A stretch of DNA of 64,000 nt from Mobula hypostoma (Eukaryota), in assembly GCF_963921235.1 (NCBI RefSeq), contig NC_086108.1, positions 59,026,001-59,090,000 on the forward strand, written 5' to 3'. The translations under genes were made by a program, and so were the position numbers. Below, piece by piece: positions 7,796 to 64,000 of the stretch. The notes beneath the pieces were generated by a model that worked only from the letters and a program-made list of their open reading frames with translations, had not been told where the DNA came from and did not search any database. Position 1 is the stretch's first letter; every line of letters starts with the position of its first letter.

Positions 7796-8730
7796 GGCTA
7801 GAGGTTTCAACGAGACTAAATTTCATTTCACTGGCATCTGAGTGATGTATCACACTTCGAAGTGTGCTGGTTGTTCACATGAATAACTAGTTCTGTGACC
7901 GGTTTATCCCTAGAAAACATTCTCAGTGGACACAGATTCTGGCATATCGATCGGTAATTAATTAGTACCTTGGAACTAAGAGCCTATTCAGACGGTTCAG
8001 CAAAGAAGCCTATTACATCAGTCAGCCTAGAACTAACATTAGCAAGGCCTTGGCGTGGTGTTGTCTCCTCTTCGTAATTTAAACACAGCCATATGAAATA
8101 TAGGTGAAAGAGGGGTGTTACAGTATTTATCTAAATAATTAAAAGTTACTAATTATAATTTTTAGCTTGTCTGAGTAACTCCTCTGAACTTGAATGAAAA
8201 ATGGCTAAAATAGTCATTATAATTAGCTCCATTATAATTAGGAAAGGTGGAATAGGTTAGGACATTATTCCCTGGAGCGTAGGAGAATGAGGGGGGATTT
8301 AATTGAGATATACAAAATTATTAAATAATTAATTTAATTAGTAAATTAAATAGTAGTTAACTGGAAACTGGTTATGCCAAAAGCCTGAAATTAAAAACCC
8401 AAACTTCCAAGAATACACAGCAGATCAGGCAGCACCTAGGGAGAGAGAAAGAAAAAGAACCAGTTCTCTTTCTGTATGCCAGCATAGGGTCATTTCAACA
8501 ATGCTGGGCTACCTTTCTCAACATAGCTTCTTGGGATCAGAAGGAATAACCTCAGGAAAGAGAGCAAGGTACATCACTGTGGAAGGGTGAGATGCAGGAG
8601 GCTTTCAAGAATGCGGATGGCTGGGTTGTAAGATCTTGGGAGTGACAACAAGATAAGCAAATTTTTATGCAACACACATAAAAGTTGCTGGTGAACGCAG
8701 CAGGCCAGGCAGCATCTCTAGAAGAGGCGC

Positions 8731-8765
8731 AGTCGACGTTTCAGGCCGAGACCCTTCGTCAGGAC
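8731..8765 (-). ncRNA. Minimal type I hammerhead ribozyme motif
   Basis: Minus strand gtc-CTGACGA-agggtctcggcct-GAAA-cGTC-gac: catalytic core, stem II, palindromic ACGT minimal stem III, GUC cleavage triplet and a short stem I (gtc/gac). Confidence 0.7.
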
Positions 8766-9306
8766 ATGGCGATTGCAGGCGTGAATCCGACAGAGGATGA
8801 AATAACGGGTAGGACCATTACAGACGGCGAAGAAAGTGTCCCAAAGGTGTGGAAGGGTCTGGGATAGGGACACCAAGTACCTCCTCATGGTGGAGAGAGT
8901 CGCCTTCAGAGCTTGACGGGAGAAGTGGCGAGAGGCAGAGTCAATAAAATGTGAGTACCTGGGATCCTCAGAAGGTCCAAATTGAGAGGCTTGGAAATGA
9001 ATCCTAAAGCCAACTGGAGTAAGTTGGCGATGGAGGCACGTTCCAGGAAAGGATATATGGCTGTGATAGCGAGTCTGAGTCAAAGTGTGGTCGAAAAGTT
9101 GAAGAGCCGAAGAAATTACAGATGGGGAGCAGTGAGAGATGGTTTCACTGAACTCCCGTCGAAGAGAGGATCTAAACTTCTTCGGTGTAGGCATCACCGG
9201 AAGAGGCTTCGCAGTAGTGAATTCTGCAGATGCTGGAAATTCAAGCAACACACATAAAAGTTGCTGGTGAATGCAGCAGGCCAGGCAGCATCTCTAGAAG
9301 AGGTGC

Positions 9307-9341
9307 AGTCAACGTTTCAGGCTGAGACCCTTCGTCAGGAC
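9307..9341 (-). ncRNA. Minimal type I hammerhead ribozyme motif
   Basis: Minus strand gtc-CTGACGA-agggtctcagcct-GAAA-cGTT-gac. Confidence 0.65.
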
Positions 9342-9449
9342 ATTTTTATGTCTAGAGGGGTACAGCCCTGATCAAAGGAGTGGGCCAGATCTTAGTAAAA
9401 AAAAAAGAACAGTCTTAAAAATACCATTAATAATCTAATCTTTTGAGTT

Positions 9450-9650
9450 TACTGCAACACACAGAAAATGGTGGAGGAACTCAGCAAGTCAGGCAGCATC
9501 TCTGCAACTCAGCAAAGAAATGGGCAGAAGCAGAATAAGAAGCTGGGAGGAAGGGGGTGCAGTTGAAAGAGCAAAGAAATTACCGGAAGTTAGAGAAATT
9601 GATGTTCATGCCATTAGGTTAGAGACCACCCATATGAAAAATGAGATGTT
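9450..9650 (-). mobile_element. Penelope 3'-end fragment
   Basis: caacacacagaaaatggtggaggaactcagcaagtcaggcagcatc terminal motif, plus the reverse complement of the post-GIY-YIG region seen at about 10960-11020. Confidence 0.6.
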
Positions 9651-10199: not shown

Positions 10200-11705
10200 A
10201 ATGCATCCCCTTCTCTCAATTTCTCACCTCCGCCACTTTACTTGCAAAAATGCCACCCCCCCAATTCTTCTGTTTCCGCCGCGTCTGCATGATGAGTCTT
10301 TTCATTCCAGAATGAAAGAGAGGTCCTCCTTTTTCAAGGAAAGGGTCTTCCCTTCCTGCACCATCAATGTTGCCCTCAACTGCATCTGTTCCATTTAACA
10401 CAAGTCTGCCCTCACCCCATCTTTCTGCCACCCTACCGGGGATAAGAGTCCTCTTGTCCTCACCTACCACCCCACCAGCCTCCACGTCCAGCACATTTCC
10501 AACAGGATCCCACCACCAAGCACATCTTCCCCCCCACCCCCACCACACTTTCTGTTTTCTGCAGGGATCACTTCCTACTTGACTCCCTTGTCCATTTGTT
10601 CCTCTCCACTGATCTCCCTCCTAGCACTTATCCTTGCAAACGGAACAAGTTCTACACCTGGCCCTACACCCCCTCCTTCACTACCATTCAGGGCCTCAAA
10701 CAGACTTTCCAGGTGAGGCAACACTTCACCTGCGAGTCTGCTGGGGTCATGTACTGTGCCTGGTGCTCCTAGTGTGGCCTCCTGTATATCAGAGAGACCC
10801 AATGTAGATTGGGAGATCTACGCTTCATCCGCCAGAAGAAGTAAGATCTCCTGGTGGCCACCCATTTGAATTCCACTTCCCATTCCCATTCCAATATGTC
10901 TATCCATGGCCTCTTCTACTGCCACGATGAGGCCACTCTCAAGTTGGAGGAACAACACCTTATAATCTATCTGGATAGCCTACAACCTGATGGCATGAAC
11001 ATTAATTTCTTGAGCTTCCGGTAATGCCTCCCTTCACCATTCCCTATACCCTTTTCCCTTTCTCATCTCCCTTTGGTGCTTCTCCCCCTTTTCCTTCTTC
11101 CATGGCCTTCTGTCCTCTCCCATTAGTTTTCCCCTTCTCCAGCCCTGTATCTCCTTCACAATGAACTCCCCAGCTCTTTACTCACTCCTCCCCCTCCTAG
11201 TTTCACCTATCACCTTGTCTTTCTCCCTCCCCTCCCACCACCTTTTAAATCCACTCCCCATCTTTTTTTCTCCAGTCTTGCTGAAAGGTCTCAGCCCAAA
11301 AAGTGACCGGTTGCAAATGGTGAGGGAGTCTAGGAGAAGAGGGCACAGCCTCAGGATAGAGGGGCATCCATTTAAAACAGAGATGTGAAGAAATTTCTTT
11401 AGCCAGGGGGTGGTGAAATTGTGGAATTTATTACCACAGGCAGCTGTGGAGGCCAGGTTGTTGGGTATATTTAAGGCAGAGCGTGATAGGTTCTTGATTG
11501 GACATGGCATCAAAGGTCACAGGGAGAAGGCGGGGGGGGGATGGGGCTGAGGAGGGGAATAATGGATCAATCATGATTGAATGGCAGAGCAGATTTGACA
11601 GACCATGTGTCTTATGGTCTTATGGTGTTATGGAAATGTCAACTGTACTCTTTTACATAGATGCTGCCTGGCCTTGCTGAGTTCCACCAGCATTTTGTGT
11701 ATGTA
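10200..11705 (+). mobile_element. Penelope-like element (Neptune-type), 5'-truncated, with degenerate GIY-YIG endonuclease; interrupted by a CR1 tail
   Basis: QVRQHFTCESAGVMYCAWCS*CGLLYIRET (about 10710-10800) is the GIY-YIG/CxxC motif of PLEs. It is followed by a pyrimidine-rich UTR and a terminal repeat with a decayed hammerhead, split between about 11300 and 11633. Confidence 0.85.
11315..11630 (+). mobile_element. CR1 3'-end insertion nested in the Penelope terminal repeat
   Basis: MVRESRRRGHSLRIEGHPFKTEM and a (tcttatgg)n tail. Confidence 0.85.
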
Positions 11706-15360: not shown

Positions 15361-15495
15361 AAACACAAAATACTCTGCAGATACAGGGGTCAAAGCAAAA
15401 CTCACAACACGCTGGAGGAACTCAGCAGGTCGGGCAGCATCTGTGGAAACGATCAGTCAACGTTTCAGGCCGGATCCCTTCATCAGGACTGAAGA
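15361..15495 (-). mobile_element. Penelope terminal-repeat unit
   Basis: ctgcagat...acgctggaggaactcagcaggtcgggcagcatc family motif ending in the hammerhead. Confidence 0.75.
15453..15492 (-). ncRNA. Minimal type I hammerhead ribozyme motif, best-preserved stem I
   Basis: Minus strand tcagtc-CTGATGA-agggatccggcct-GAAA-cGTT-gactga: perfect 6-bp stem I and an intact core. Confidence 0.75.
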
Positions 15496-19590: not shown

Positions 19591-20460
19591 AGTTGGGCCT
19601 CAATCGTGATAGGAGAAAAGTCCACAGAATGACATGTAGGTATGGGAATGGGGAGTCGAATTGAAATGGATAGCTACTGTGAGATGCTGGTGTACAAAAC
19701 GAAGGTGCTTGACAAAATGATCCACTAATTTGCATCAGTTCTCATTGAGGAAGCTGGCCCTGGAGCACTGCATACAATAAATGACCCCAACAGACTCACA
19801 GATGAAACAACGCCTTACCTGGAAGGACTGTTTGGGCCCCTGAAGGGTGATGAGAGAAGAGGTGTAATGGCAGGTGTAGCACTTGTGACACTTGTGGGAA
19901 AAAGTGTCAGGAGGGAGATCAGTGAGGAGGGACGAATGGATAAGGGAGGCAGGATACCTTATATTCCATCTGGGTAGCTTCAAACGTGATAACATAAGCA
20001 TCAATTTTCTAACTTCTAATAATCACTGCCCTCTATTCCTGCCTCTCCCCCCCTTCTCCCTTTCTCCATTTCTCATTCTGATTAACCTCTCACCTGCCCT
20101 TATGACCTACTGATCACCTCCCTCTGATTTCCCATCTTTTACCCTTTCTTCCATAGTCCATTGTCCTCTCCTATTAAATTCCTTCTTATTCAGTTCTTTA
20201 CCTATTCCACCAATCACCTCCCAGCTTTTCATATTATCACCCTTCCCCCACCCTCACCTGGTCTCTCACATCCTCTGCCAGCTTGTACTCCATCCCCACC
20301 CCCACCATATTATTCTGGCCTCTGCTCCTTTCCTTCCCAGAAAGGTCTCTGCCTGAAACATCAACTGATCATTTCACTCCGTAGATTCTGCCTGACCTGT
20401 CTTCTTTCAACATTTTGTATGTGCTGCTCAAGAATTCTAGCATCAGCAGAATCTCTTGTG
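19590..20460. mobile_element. Penelope fragment with inverted 5' part (minus GIY-YIG about 19590-19950, plus 3' end about 19950-20460)
   Basis: Minus LQGPKQSFQVRRCFICESVGVIYCMQCSR; plus-strand pyrimidine UTR and decayed terminal repeat. Confidence 0.75.
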
Positions 20461-21648: not shown

Positions 21649-21881
21649 AGCAGCACACACTAAATGCTGGAAGAACTCAGCACGCCAGGCAGCATCAATG
21701 AAAAGAGTATAGTCAACATTTTGGGCTGAGATCCTGCATCAGCAGTACTGTTGAAGGGTCTCGGTCTGAAACGTCAACTGTACTCATTTCCATAGATGCT
21801 GCTTGGACTGCTGAGTTCTTCAAGCATTTTGTGTGTGTATGCTTGGATTTCCAGCATCTGCAGATTTTCTCTTGTTTGTGG
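21649..21881. mobile_element. Fold-back Penelope terminal-repeat dyad with TSD
   Basis: About 92-bp inverted arms around the palindrome CAGTACTG (21743-21750). TSD agggtttaaa(a/t)taa at 21635-21648 and 21882-21895. Confidence 0.85.
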
Positions 21882-24232: not shown

Positions 24233-24331
24233 CTGGGACCTGCCTTGATGAAGGATCTCAGCCCAAAACGTTAACTGCTTATTCCTTTCCATAGATGCTG
24301 CCTGACCTGCTGAGTTCCTTCAGCACTTTCC
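24233..24331 (+). mobile_element. Solo Penelope terminal-repeat unit with decayed hammerhead and TSD
   Basis: ttgatgaaggatctcagcccaaaacgttaactg. TSD ttcat(g/c)tatactgc at 24219-24232 and 24332-24345. Confidence 0.7.
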
Positions 24332-28489: not shown

Positions 28490-31400
28490 TGTGACAGCAA
28501 TGGGTCACTACAGTGAAAAAGAGTTTTGACCGGCAACCAGTCGGCGTTTGGGATTGATTAGCAAAAGCAAGTTAAAGGAAGACAGGGGTAAGCAGAGAGG
28601 CCTTCGTCGCAGCGGCCATCATCTGAGTGGTGATCTTGAGGCTTAGCTTTCCGAGGCTTCAGTCAGAGAAATCAAAGAAAAGAAAAACTCTAGGTTAAAT
28701 TTTTTTCCCTTCCGTTCTTTATATCTATTCAGCTAGGACAAATGCCAGACTAGGTAGTTGAATGCTTCTTTTGCGAGATGTGGGAAGGCAGGGAGACCTC
28801 CAGTGTCCCTGATGACTACAACTGCAAGAAGTGCATCCAGCTGCAGCTTCTAACAATCCACGTTAATGAGTTGGAGCTGGAAATGGATGAACTCTGGATC
28901 ATCTGGAAGGCTGAAGGAATAATAGATAGGACGTATAGAGAGGTAGTTACACCCAAAGGGCAGGAGACAGAAAACTGGGTGACAGTTGAGGAAGGGTAAA
29001 GGGGTTAAGGAGCTAGTGTAGAGTACCCCGATGGATACTGTCAGGGGAGTTGACCTAACAGAGGAAAGTCACAGTGGTCGGGCATCTGGCACTGAGTCTG
29101 CCTCTGTGACTCAGAAGGGAAGGGTGGAGAAGAGGCACACTGTGGTGATAGGGGATTCGTTAGTTAAGGGAATGGACAGGAGGTATTGTGGATGAGAACA
29201 AGGTTCCAAGATGATGCCTCCTGGGTGCTAGGGTCCAGGATATCTTGGACTGAGTCCACAGCATTTTTAAGAGGGAGGGTGAGCAGCCAGAAGTCGTGGT
29301 CTATGTAGGTACCAATGAAATGGATAGGATGAGTGATACAGTTCTGCATAAGGAGCTCAGGGAGTTAGGTGCTAAGTTAAAGAGTATAATAAGAGAAAGA
29401 GAAATAAGTATTTTGCATCAGTCTTTATTGTGGAAGACACTAGTAGTATGGCAGAAGTTCCAGATATCAGGGGTCATGAAGTGTGTGAAGTTACCACAGC
29501 TAGACAGAAGGTTCTTGGGAAACTGAATGGTCTGAAGGTACTTAAGTCACCTGGAAAAGCTGGTATACACCCCAGTGTTCTGAAAGAGGTGATTGAAGAG
29601 ATTGTGGAGGAATTAGTAATGGTCTTTCAAGAATCACTAGATTCCAAAATAGTTCTGGAAGACTGGAAAGTTGCAAATGTCACTCCACTTTTCAAGAACA
29701 GAGAGAGGCAGAAGAAAGGAAACTACAGGCCAGGTAGTTTGATGTCAGTGTTTGGGAAGATGTTGGAGTCAATTATTAAGGATTAAGGCTCAGGATACTT
29801 GGAGGCACGTGATGAAATAGGCCATAGTCAGCATGGTTTCCTCAAGGGAAACTCTTGGCTGACAAATCTTCTGGAATTCTTTGATGAAATAACAAACAGG
29901 GTAGACAAAATGGAATCAGTTTATGTTGTGTACTTGGATTTTCAGAAGGCCTTTGACAAAGTGCCACACATGAGGCTGCTTAACATGTTATGAACCCATG
30001 GTATTACAGGAAAGATTTTAGCATGGAGCAGGACCTTCAGGGTTGTGACCTCAGGATTGCTTCACATGTGACCTGCTCATGAGGCCAGAACTAGGAAGAT
30101 TATACAGTTTAACACATGGCTAAGGAGCTGGTGTAGGAAGGAGGGCATCATTGGGCTCTCTTCCAGGGAAGGTGGGATCTGTACAGAAGGGACAGTTTTC
30201 ACCTGAACTGGAGGGGGACTAATATCCTAGTGGGAAGGTTTGTTAATTCTGCACAGTGGGGTTTAAACTGGAGTTGCAAGGGAGATGGGAACCAGAATGC
30301 CAGAACAGTTAGTGGAGAAATTGTGGCGGCAGATGTTGGTAAGACCTCAGACAATGTTAGGAATCAAAAGGTTGAACATGATGCGACTAATATCCTGAGC
30401 TGTGTATATTTCAATGCAAGAAGTATCATGGAAAGATGGATGATAGTGCTGAAGATGATGTAGCTGGTTTACAAACAGAGGCAATGTGTAGTGAGGAGAG
30501 GCTGTTGTTAGGGCAAAGTTGCAGTCAACAGGATGAATTGCAATGTAAAAGGTGGACAAAATTGAAAAGGATGAATACAGGACTGAAGGTGTTGTATCTG
30601 AATGCACACAATATGCGGAATAAGGTAGATGAAGCTGCAGCACAGTAACAGATTGGCAGGTATGATCATGGCTGAACGAAGATTATAGCTGGGAGCTTCA
30701 TGTCCAAGGACACACATTATATCAAAAGGACAGGCAGGAAGGCAGAGGAGGTTGTGTTGCACTGTTGGTAAAAAATAATCAAATAATTAGAAAGAGGTTA
30801 CATGGGTTTGGAAGGTGTTGCCACGTTGTGGATAGAGCTAAGGAACGGCAAGGGTAAAATGACCCTGATGGGAATTGTATACTGACCCCCAGACAATAGT
30901 AAGGATGTGGTCTACAAATTACAATGGGAGATAGAAAATGCATGCCAAAACGGCAATACTGCAAGAGTACAGTCGACGTTTTAGGCCAAGTCCTGATGAA
31001 GAGTCTTGGTCTGAAATGTTGACTATAGTCTTTTCCATAGATGCTGCCTGGTCTGCTGAGTTCTTCCAGTATTTTATGTGTGTGTTGCTTGGATTTCCAG
31101 CATCTGCAGATTTTCTCCTGTTTGTAAACGTTACAATAGTCATGGAGGATTTCAAAATGAAGGTAGATTAGGATGGATAAAGCAGTGGCTGATTGGCAGG
31201 AGGCAAAGAGTGGGAATAAAGGGAGCCTTTTCTTGTTGGCTGCCAGTGACTAGTGGTGTTCCACAGGGGTCTGCTTTGGGACCATTTTTTTTACATTATG
31301 TCCATGATTTGGATGATGGAATTGATGGCTTTGTTGCCAAGTTTACAGATGGTATGAAGATAGGTGGAGGAGCAAGTGGTTCTGTGGAAGTACAGAGGCT

Positions 31401-38687: not shown

Positions 38688-38830
38688 ACAGAAAATCTGA
38701 AGATGCTGGACATCCAAGCAACACACAGAGTCTTGCTGAAGGGTTTCGGCCCGAATTGTTGACTGTACTTTTTTTTACATCGATGTTGCCTGGCCTGCTG
38801 AGTTCCTCCAGCATTTTGTGTGTGTTGCTC
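38688..38830. mobile_element. Penelope terminal-repeat unit with 5' inversion
   Basis: agcaacacaca at left and tgtgtgttgct at right, flanking a decayed hammerhead gtcttgctgaagggtttcggcccgaattgttgactg. Confidence 0.75.
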
Positions 38831-39002
38831 AAAATAACTTTATTCACATAATGACATACAAGATGGAACTAACTAAGCATTTAAAGAGGAAAACATTTAA
38901 CAGCAGAAAAAGCAGGTTTAAAGGACTGTAGTACGTTGAAGTGTACAGTATATGGAGCTGGTCTAATATAGACATGTCTGGCCAGACAGCCATTTGAGAA
39001 AA

Positions 39003-39093
39003 CAAGAGAAAATCTGCAGATGTTGGAAATCGAAGCAACACACGCAAAATGCTGGAGGAACTCAGCAGGCCAGGTACGTCATTTTGTGTATGT
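39003..39093 (-). mobile_element. Truncated Penelope terminal-repeat unit with TSD
   Basis: TSD catttgagaaaa at 38991-39002 and 39094-39105. Confidence 0.7.
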
Positions 39094-56842: not shown

Positions 56843-57067
56843 TGGCAACACACACAAAATGCTGCAGGAACTTAGCAGGCCAGGCAGCATCTCTGGGAAT
56901 GAGAACACAGTCAACATTTACGGCCGAGACCCTTCTTCAGGATTCTTGGCCCAAAACATCGACTGTTTACTCCTTTCCATAGATACTGCTTGGCTTGCTA
57001 AGTTCCTCCAGCATCCTGTGTGTGTCACTTTGGATTTCCAGCATCTGCAGATTTTCTCATGTTTGTG
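56843..57067. mobile_element. Fold-back Penelope terminal-repeat dyad with perfect 13-bp TSD
   Basis: TSD ACCATTAGTTCTA at 56830-56842 and 57068-57080; inverted arms meet at about 56935-56945 within the hammerhead region. Confidence 0.85.
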
Positions 57068-62895: not shown

Positions 62896-63329
62896 CCCTG
62901 CACCATGTCTATTCTTAGTGGAAAAGAAACTGAAAACTTCAAGTTCATGCCCCAGCAGCACACAGAAACGCAACGTAACCAGTGGAAAGAGCACACCTGA
63001 CTGCCCACCTAACTCTTCAGGCATTTCCTGTTCCATCTCTGGTAGTGTCAGTGCTTTCTACATTGGCTTCATCAGTCACCTCAAAACTGACAGAACTGGA
63101 GTGGAGGAAAGACATTCTTGGCGGCCTAGGTGGAAGAAAGATTCTAGTCTTTATAGTGATAACTTTACGGAAATTAAATGCAAGTTGCAATGCATAAATA
63201 AACATTCTCATAGTATCAAAGGGTAGAAATAGCCTTCACCAATTATTCTTCTTGAGGAAAACAAGTAAATCTATATGTGCCTGCAGATGAAGTGCAGAGG
63301 GGATGACAGCCAGGCATGATATTCTTGGT

Positions 63330-63430
63330 CCTGACGAAGGGTCTCGGCCCGAAATGTCGACTGTACCTCTTTCTAGAGATGCTGCCTGGCCTGCTGCCTT
63401 CACCAGCAACTTTGACGTGTGTTGCTTGAA
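63330..63430 (+). mobile_element. Solo Penelope terminal-repeat unit with near-intact hammerhead and TSD
   Basis: gtc-CTGACGA-a-GGG-tctcgg-CCC-GAAA-tGTC-gac. TSD ATTCTTGGT at 63321-63329 and 63431-63439. Same subfamily (ttcaccagcaacttt) as 8670-9341. Confidence 0.85.
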
Positions 63431-64000
63431 ATTCTTGGTGTAGCTTTGGCTACTTGATATGTCTCTTGTAATATTTTCACACCCAGTTAAAAAACATTCT
63501 CATAGGAAGCCCCGCATTCTAACTTGAAGCAGTAAATTCAGATGGTGCTTTGAATGTTGCCATTTGAAGTCAGTCTCACATAAGTTTAGTGGTCAATGTT
63601 GGAGTGCAAAAAGAAACATTACAAATTAATTACAAGGAATTATTTTCTGATTTGGTACTCCTGATGTGATTTGTAATTGGCAGCAAAGACTAGAATACAT
63701 CCCCTAATCCATTCTTGAAGAAGTACTATTTTATACATGGCATCTGTATCTGAATTAGTTCTTTATCTACCATTTCCAAGCACCTCTTTTATATAGTTTA
63801 ATTAAAAAGTTCATAGAGGCTGCACATATCTCGGGAAGAGTAAAGTATTGACCAGTTTAGCTCACAAATAACTGAAGTTCTACTTGAGAAAAGTAGCTGT
63901 CGGTTTCCCTTCCAATGATACACAACAGGTACATAACTGGAAACCAGGCATTAGTCATATTTCCAGATGGTTAAAAAATTAGTTACAAATAATAAGTGAT

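Follow-up and report, generated by a model that had tools for sequence, protein, structure and literature searches.

A single-copy, decaying Penelope-like element insertion with two hammerhead-bearing repeats in Mobula hypostoma and its probable origin by wrap-around reverse transcription

Anatomy of the insertion

The window analysed here, a stretch of 64,000 nucleotides from the genome of Mobula hypostoma, contains at positions 8670-9341 a 672-bp unit that is composed of pieces of a Penelope-like element (PLE) in minus-strand orientation (Table 1). In family numbering, in which the A of the PLE ATG is +1, the unit runs from -168 to +427 and then again from -168 to -71. Its two 96-bp direct repeats are offset by 576 nt and differ at four positions (8696/9272, 8728/9304, 8735/9311 and 8747/9323), all of which are CpG transitions that fall in repeat 1. 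Repeat 1 begins inside hammerhead stem I, and repeat 2 ends at the first of the two 3'-end sites of the PLE family. A 1-nt variant is common to both repeats; among 207 motifs it is carried by two, both in the window. The tail and leader segment has a 21-nt deletion at an AATTC microhomology (9219-9223), which takes out the second 3'-end site (-36). This deletion pattern occurs three times genome-wide and is confined to the window copy and to L156 (G000:C5:167.027 Mb), a separate array that has it in both rounds; the deletion was therefore already present in the L156 template.

Table 1. Features of the insertion and other PLE fragments in the window
Feature	Position	Strand	Basis
Target-site duplication (TSD), 5' copy in element sense	9342..9350	-	sequence; empty site retains one copy
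Repeat 1, PLE pseudo-LTR end, family -168 to -71	9246..9341	-	family comparison
Hammerhead 1, minimal type I, GUU triplet, predicted cut 9311/9310	9308..9341	-	core letters; no Rfam match
PLE tail and leader with 21-nt in-frame deletion	9195..9245	-	family comparison
Decaying start of the Neptune-type PLE ORF, 143 codons (+1 to about +429)	8766..9194	-	
Private junction, ORF +427/+429 to pseudo-LTR -168	8760..8771	-	no insert, not GT-AG
Repeat 2, pseudo-LTR end -168 to -71; holds TAG 8720-8718	8670..8765	-	
Hammerhead 2, minimal type I, GUC triplet, predicted cut 8735/8734	8732..8765	-	
TSD, 3' copy in element sense	8661..8669	-	sequence; empty site
Older PLE fragments	9581-9650, 10241-11023, 15418-15490, 19762-20016, 21744-21878, 24246-24317, 30989-31124, 38729-39074, 56845-57065, 63325-63434		

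The unit lies between two copies of the TSD ATTTTTATG. In a contig from a related species, window position 8660 is joined straight to 9342, so that the unit and one TSD copy are absent. Because of this exact empty site the TSD is genuine, and since the whole unit is skipped together with one TSD copy, the unit is one insertion. In contigs from a closer relative both flanks are joined to the element, and the insertion is thus older than that split. A previous reading of the same DNA, made from its letters without database searches (hereafter the sequence-only reading), had described the 672-bp unit, the 96-bp repeats with four CpG differences and the TSD, and had taken the unit for a single retrotransposed insertion; re-measurement and the empty site bear this out.

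That two separate PLE insertions came to lie head-to-tail at one site is the least probable of all the readings weighed here. PLE fragments are dense in the genome, and PLEs are said to insert into or beside existing copies (PMC6765202, in its available part), but a single TSD surrounds the whole unit and there is one clean empty site. Two separate insertions also sit poorly with the rare 1-nt variant in both repeats and with the 3' ends of the family, which lie at -70 or -36 and not at +427; a relative with repeat 2 alone was not seen in the 4 runs examined.

About ten older PLE fragments with 75-90% identity to the PLE family are also present in the window. As to a host gene, a Pfam scan of 105 of the 436 unmasked frames gave one low-complexity match only.

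The open frame

On the minus strand, the frame 9293-8718 has 191 codons without a stop; a Pfam scan gave no domain in it, in agreement with the sequence-only reading, which had noted a stop-free minus frame lacking reverse transcriptase (RT) and endonuclease (EN). Of the 191 codons, 33 stem from the 5' leader of the PLE and 143 from the start of its ORF, and the last 15 are read-through. The frame had been proposed to find its stop after circularisation; in the linear form it already closes at the TAG in repeat 2, 158 amino acids from the ATG. Its continuation across the junction (576 = 192 x 3), which the sequence-only reading had pointed out, would occur by chance in one case of three; sister copies have units of 120 to 2256 nt. 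Compared with the majority of 57 copies the frame has ten differences, of which the three common ones are silent and the seven rare ones non-synonymous. The frame is the decaying start of a PLE ORF. A private deletion as the creator of the open frame was ruled out, the deletion being 21 nt long and in frame.

The parent PLE family

Fetched copies, represented by L070, define a parent PLE with a 3512-nt unit and one 1016-amino acid ORF, to which the window pieces are 92-96% identical. The L070 ORF matches RVT_1 (E 3e-5) and, at its C-terminus, GIY-YIG (E 1e-3), both below the Pfam cut-offs. Between RT and EN it contains the linker CKRNKCYTC (CX4CxxC), and a CX2-5CxxC linker motif is described for Neptune and Nematis in the available part of PMC8557442. 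The parent thus fits a Neptune-type PLE by a motif that Nematis has too. The family has a pseudo-LTR with a minimal hammerhead, partial tandems and a tail of 30-40 nt.

In the 3.48-Gb genome, a search with the whole unit gave at least 41 matches (40 scored of 4074 candidates), most of which continue into the long ORF. The exact hammerhead 34-mer has 28,830 copies genome-wide and the exact ORF-start 24-mer 625, as expected if copying begins just 3' of the hammerhead and usually stops. Open frames of 1013-1016 codons are present in 11 of 60 fetched long loci (L067, L070, L075, L084, L089, L096, L101, L104, L105, L113 and L114), which indicates that the family is young. A subfamily (L045, L068, L071, L081, L116, L119 and L189) is marked by a duplication of about 210 nt (+640 to +851) inside the ORF, in its proline-rich part. 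In L070 a strong 3' splice-site-like signal ends at -172/-171, where it abuts the 5' arm of hammerhead stem I, and Penelope of D. virilis likewise has such a signal at the stem I 5' arm (PMC4209133, available part).

Hammerhead motifs and predicted ribozyme activity

Each repeat contains a minus-strand CTGACGA-stem II-GAAACGT(C/T) motif, i.e. the CUGACGA core and the palindromic ACGU of PLE minimal hammerheads, as which the sequence-only reading had recognised them. A search against Rfam, proposed by the same reading, gave 7 chance-level matches at E values up to 10, none of them a hammerhead; with Rfam silent, the ribozyme label follows from the core letters and from identity with the PLE pseudo-LTR. 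Stem I has 3 bp in both window repeats versus 5 bp in the parent family, and the cut-site triplet of repeat 1 has decayed from GUC to GUU. In a dimer fold, the stem I of repeat 1 comprises these 3 bp with -1.7 kcal/mol, while the 5' arm of repeat 2 could form a bulged extension with -3.3 to -3.8 kcal/mol, compared with -3.8 kcal/mol for the stem I duplex of an intact unit. The hammerheads are absent from the minimum-energy fold, which is a weak guide to a dimer fold. It is unlikely that a 576-nt monomer would be released efficiently. Helix I of the D. virilis PLE hammerhead has only 2 bp (PMC4209133, available part), so a short stem is no proof of inactivity.

The junction between the ORF piece and repeat 2 is a single copy in the genome, both as an exact sequence and with 3 mismatches allowed. 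The sequence-only reading had suggested a junction search for further copies and had placed a single-copy junction first among the findings that would speak against a new non-autonomous family. Two hammerhead repeats, an insertion and a TSD do exist as it described, and what falls away from its retrozyme-like element is the status of a family. What stands at the window locus is a single-copy product of a PLE, now dead, and no new retroelement family.

It is extremely unlikely that the unit is a non-autonomous retrozyme whose two hammerheads set free a 576-nt monomer or circle for translation and re-insertion. This reading draws on the two core motifs with an ACGU palindrome in direct repeat, on the bulged extension that brings repeat 2 near the intact unit, and on the 2-bp helix of D. 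virilis. It is opposed by the single-copy junction, by the short stem I and GUU triplet of repeat 1, and by the rare changes in the ORF, 7/7 of which alter the protein. Known activities point in the same direction: PLE minimal hammerheads cleave weakly (PMC4209133, available part), the anole PLE hammerhead needs protein and is dispensable for insertion (PMC11167929), and 8 of 9 tested Xenopus dimers stayed uncleaved (bioRxiv 10.64898/2026.07.22.740005).

A recurrent class of insertions with private junctions

The wrap-around layout of the window copy recurs elsewhere in the genome. Four insertions of similar length (L003, L004, L005 and L034) each have their own junction, those of L004 and L005 being one C apart at a microhomology. 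Two samples of ORF-start insertions were scored, with a junction cut-off of 1500 nt for the layout class. The first 100 listed of the 625 anchor matches gave 90 loci and, after removal of 2 duplicates, 88 insertions: 38 with the layout, 48 that continue into the ORF and 2 of other kinds. A second anchor with 405 matches provided a held-out sample of 43 insertions absent from the first; here, 10 have the layout (2 of them atypical), 27 continue and 6 are other. The layout is therefore present in 48 of 131 sampled insertions, almost all with their own junctions, and extrapolation from the exact anchors gives about 200 cases genome-wide. The window locus itself is ordinary, one among this estimated couple of hundred. 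L195 (G000:C2:177.56 Mb), a near-full-length copy with unit starts at -515 and -521 and a junction at +2889, was scored as continuing since its junction lies beyond the cut-off. Breakpoints were taken from BLAST against one real copy, with a possible error of a few bases, and as automatic insert sizing overcalls in copies with private changes, clear cases alone are cited.

TSD-like repeats flank 30 of the 38 layout insertions of sample 1, and all 38 have their 3' ends at -64 to -76 or at -26 to -38. Fragments anchored on the hammerhead end at either of two sites about 35 nt apart in 29 of 30 cases. The hammerhead cut coincides with none of the 48 junctions, 13 of which fall at -171 to -166. 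Of the 43 single-junction cases, 12 have unit starts no more than 3 nt apart (permutation mean 2.2, p 2e-5); away from the hotspot at -169 such matching starts number 6 of 23 (0.95 expected), and in the held-out sample 3 of 10 (0.7 expected). The -169 hotspot may be a start site, the product of a 3' splice site or a nuclease boundary. In 18 of 33 single-junction cases of sample 1, the first unit starts well downstream of the second unit's start, which fits a linear or a circular template alike. Inverted 5' arms meet within 10 nt of one base in 14 of 19 cases of sample 1 (5.0 expected); the held-out sample gave 1 of 2, too few cases for replication.

Several junctions carry untemplated A/T-rich letters, in one case TT plus an A9 run. 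Inspection by eye revealed no consistent occurrence of a cap-derived extra G at the junctions. Only 1 of 53 junctions is compatible with GT-AG, and splicing was rejected as their general cause. The idea of a preferred 3' end at about +400 to +430 was dropped, as the whole-unit search had selected for it: only 4 matches have an ORF anchor at 25-55 nt ahead of a hammerhead, and unselected ends cluster at +24 to +40 (cut off by the anchor) and at +97 to +163.

These statistics argue against hammerhead cleavage and ligation, and against internal deletion, as the source of the class. It is very unlikely that the window copy began as a full-length PLE with two pseudo-LTRs, from which the middle 2.9 kb went missing through a DNA-level deletion or a single RT skip. 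L078, L090 and L094 do fit internal deletion, and internally deleted rotifer PLEs have been described (PMC3846280, available part). Yet under a deletion the common start of both repeats at -168 would be a coincidence, and of 75 continuing copies only 1 begins at -171 to -166. For the 43 single-junction cases it predicts 0.35 matching starts and 27.5 first units that reach upstream of the second's start, but 12 and 3 were observed; moreover, the relatives examined show either the empty site or flanks joined to the element ends.

Wrap-around reverse transcription as the probable origin

Any account of the window copy has to start from its observed composition, single-copy junction, TSD with empty site, decaying ORF and recurring layout. 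For this single-copy, decaying insertion of the Neptune type, the likely explanation is that the RT of the element copied one short RNA about 1.2 times. The template would have been a linear PLE RNA extending from -168 to about +429. After a nick by the GIY-YIG domain at an AT-rich target, reverse transcription would have begun inside this RNA at the -71 site, and the enzyme would have run off the 5' end of the RNA, giving repeat 2. A jump to the free 3' end of the RNA would have let it copy the whole molecule as far as that 5' end once more, and from this second round would come the ORF piece and repeat 1. Run-off, jump and recopying are steps that we infer from the sequences. The hammerheads would be passengers, with no part for the cut site in forming the junction, which in the window does not lie at a hammerhead cut. 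Since its insertion the copy has decayed at CpGs, and no offspring was detected. Initiation at -71 with copying to the RNA 5' end would also give rise to the abundant solo fragments.

In vitro, the PLE protein of the anole initiates reverse transcription at two adjacent sites inside the RNA, for which RNA downstream of the start sites is needed and hammerhead cleavage is not (PMC11167929); the two 3'-end sites of the parent family resemble these internal start sites. A linear template is favoured because of the matching starts, the A/T-rich inserts (the window junction itself has none), the rare variant in both repeats and L050, in which one 3' end has two different 5' ends. A literature search confined to openly accessible main texts found no account of short PLE insertions in which the two repeats begin at one base, nor of a PLE enzyme jumping from the 5' end of an RNA to its 3' end.

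The alternative that the ends of a PLE fragment were ligated, not at the hammerhead, into a circular RNA that served for rolling reverse transcription is unlikely for the window copy. On a circle nothing would make the enzyme stop at the junction, but the window copy and 12 of 43 others stop within 3 nt of it; the two 5' ends of L050 and the scarcity of GT-AG compatible junctions, to which the window junction does not belong, also count against it. On the other hand, circular templates have been proposed for PLE copies of more than unit length (PMC4209133, available part), and multi-round arrays (L036, L051, L066, L125, L156 and L234) cross an identical junction 2-4 times and terminate at unrelated places. 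For these arrays a circular template fits at least as well, and one GT-AG compatible junction, that of L066 and L234, is found at two loci. Linear and circular routes may both operate.

L066 (G000:C2:157.8165-157.8177 Mb) and L234 (G000:C50:58.4125 Mb) consist of 310-nt tandem units with an intact 5-bp stem I. The two loci have one junction in common (+138 to -171), and each has a TSD, a 3' end and a 5' end of its own. They differ from one another at 4 sites, all of them polymorphic in the parent family. Their junction fits a GT donor, an allele present in 41 of 102 copies, and an acceptor formed by a pyrimidine-tract CAG just before stem I, which makes a spliced or back-spliced circle a candidate. 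This array, in which the hammerheads are intact, is a better retrozyme candidate than the window unit. A further observation concerns inverted solo pairs (L127/L128, L141, L146/L147 and L148/L149), whose arms end near -70 and near -36 (or shorter) and meet at one upstream base, which suggests that both strands were primed on one template.

Significance

How PLEs build their pseudo-LTRs and tandems is the wider question, and the junction class described here makes the tandem-forming step testable. The in vitro study of the anole PLE leaves the later insertion steps unvalidated (PMC11167929). The circle model rests on hammerhead cleavage, and the junctions of the class avoid the hammerhead cut. 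A young PLE family with hundreds of visible junctions provides a countable test, and its RNA ends can be mapped. In addition, screens for tandem hammerheads will label such one-off PLE products as retrozymes.

Tentatively, and as a possibility more than an expectation, the short insertions could be visible misfires of a normally seamless PLE step of internal initiation, run-off and wrap-around, and the same machinery acting on circles could produce hammerhead arrays. If so, pseudo-LTRs and partial tandems would arise by wrap-around to the RNA's own 3' end, with no hammerhead cut involved, and a circle, such as a GT-AG-joined 310-nt unit, would yield a hammerhead array in one insertion. Array formation from circles would then be a direct route from PLE to retrozyme.

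Comparison with known systems

Plant LTR retrozymes have type III hammerheads, true LTRs and a 4-bp TSD (bioRxiv 10.64898/2026.07.22.740005), and the type I motif and 9-bp TSD of the window copy rule out this class. Metazoan non-LTR retrozymes, defined in the available part of PMC7229834 by amplified tandem units and circles, likewise have tandem type I hammerheads a few hundred nt apart. The window hammerheads are in direct tandem at a distance of 576 nt, with about 1.2 units; in contrast to non-LTR retrozymes, the unit is not amplified, stem I is truncated and the spacer is the start of a PLE ORF. An origin of retrozymes from PLE pseudo-LTRs has been argued for vertebrates, including one cartilaginous fish, with birth by local tandem amplification of a terminal repeat as a suggestion (bioRxiv 10.64898/2026.07.22.740005), whereas the window tandem arises at insertion, inside one TSD.

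The minimal hammerheads of PLE pseudo-LTRs in the available part of PMC4209133 likewise have the core, an extra base before stem II and ACGU in place of stem III. The circle proposed there, by cleavage and ligation, puts junctions at the cut, where 0 of 48 are found here. PLE copies with partial tandems, tails, inverted arms or internal deletions have been described before (PMC8557442, PMC3846280, PMC8969392, PMC6765202 and PMC6431247, each in its available part). Within the available parts of PMC8557442 and PMC3846280, the partial tandems of EN+ Neptune-type PLEs share with the window copy and its sister copies the 5' truncation, the TSD, the inverted arms (in sister copies) and two 3'-end sites about 35 nt apart. 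In contrast to those tandems, the repeated unit in the window is a 576-nt 5' fragment and not a 3.5-kb element, its repeats start at one base, and its junction is visible and private. The Poseidon PLE of Anolis carolinensis (PAc), which belongs to another clade, likewise has a pair of adjacent internal start sites in agreement with 3' ends in the genome, an AT-rich target and insertion without hammerhead cleavage; its main text contains neither a jump from the RNA 5' end to the 3' end nor short wrap-around products (PMC11167929).

By its features, the window copy is classed as a fragment of an EN+ PLE, with a parent that combines RT and GIY-YIG in one ORF and a pseudo-LTR with a hammerhead. 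The reverse transcriptases of R2, group II introns and DRT2 run off their template and then switch to an RNA end, in some cases adding untemplated letters, so that tandem cDNA results. The jump proposed here for a PLE differs from these in that it is deduced from genomic footprints and would lead back to the 3' end of the same, internally primed RNA.
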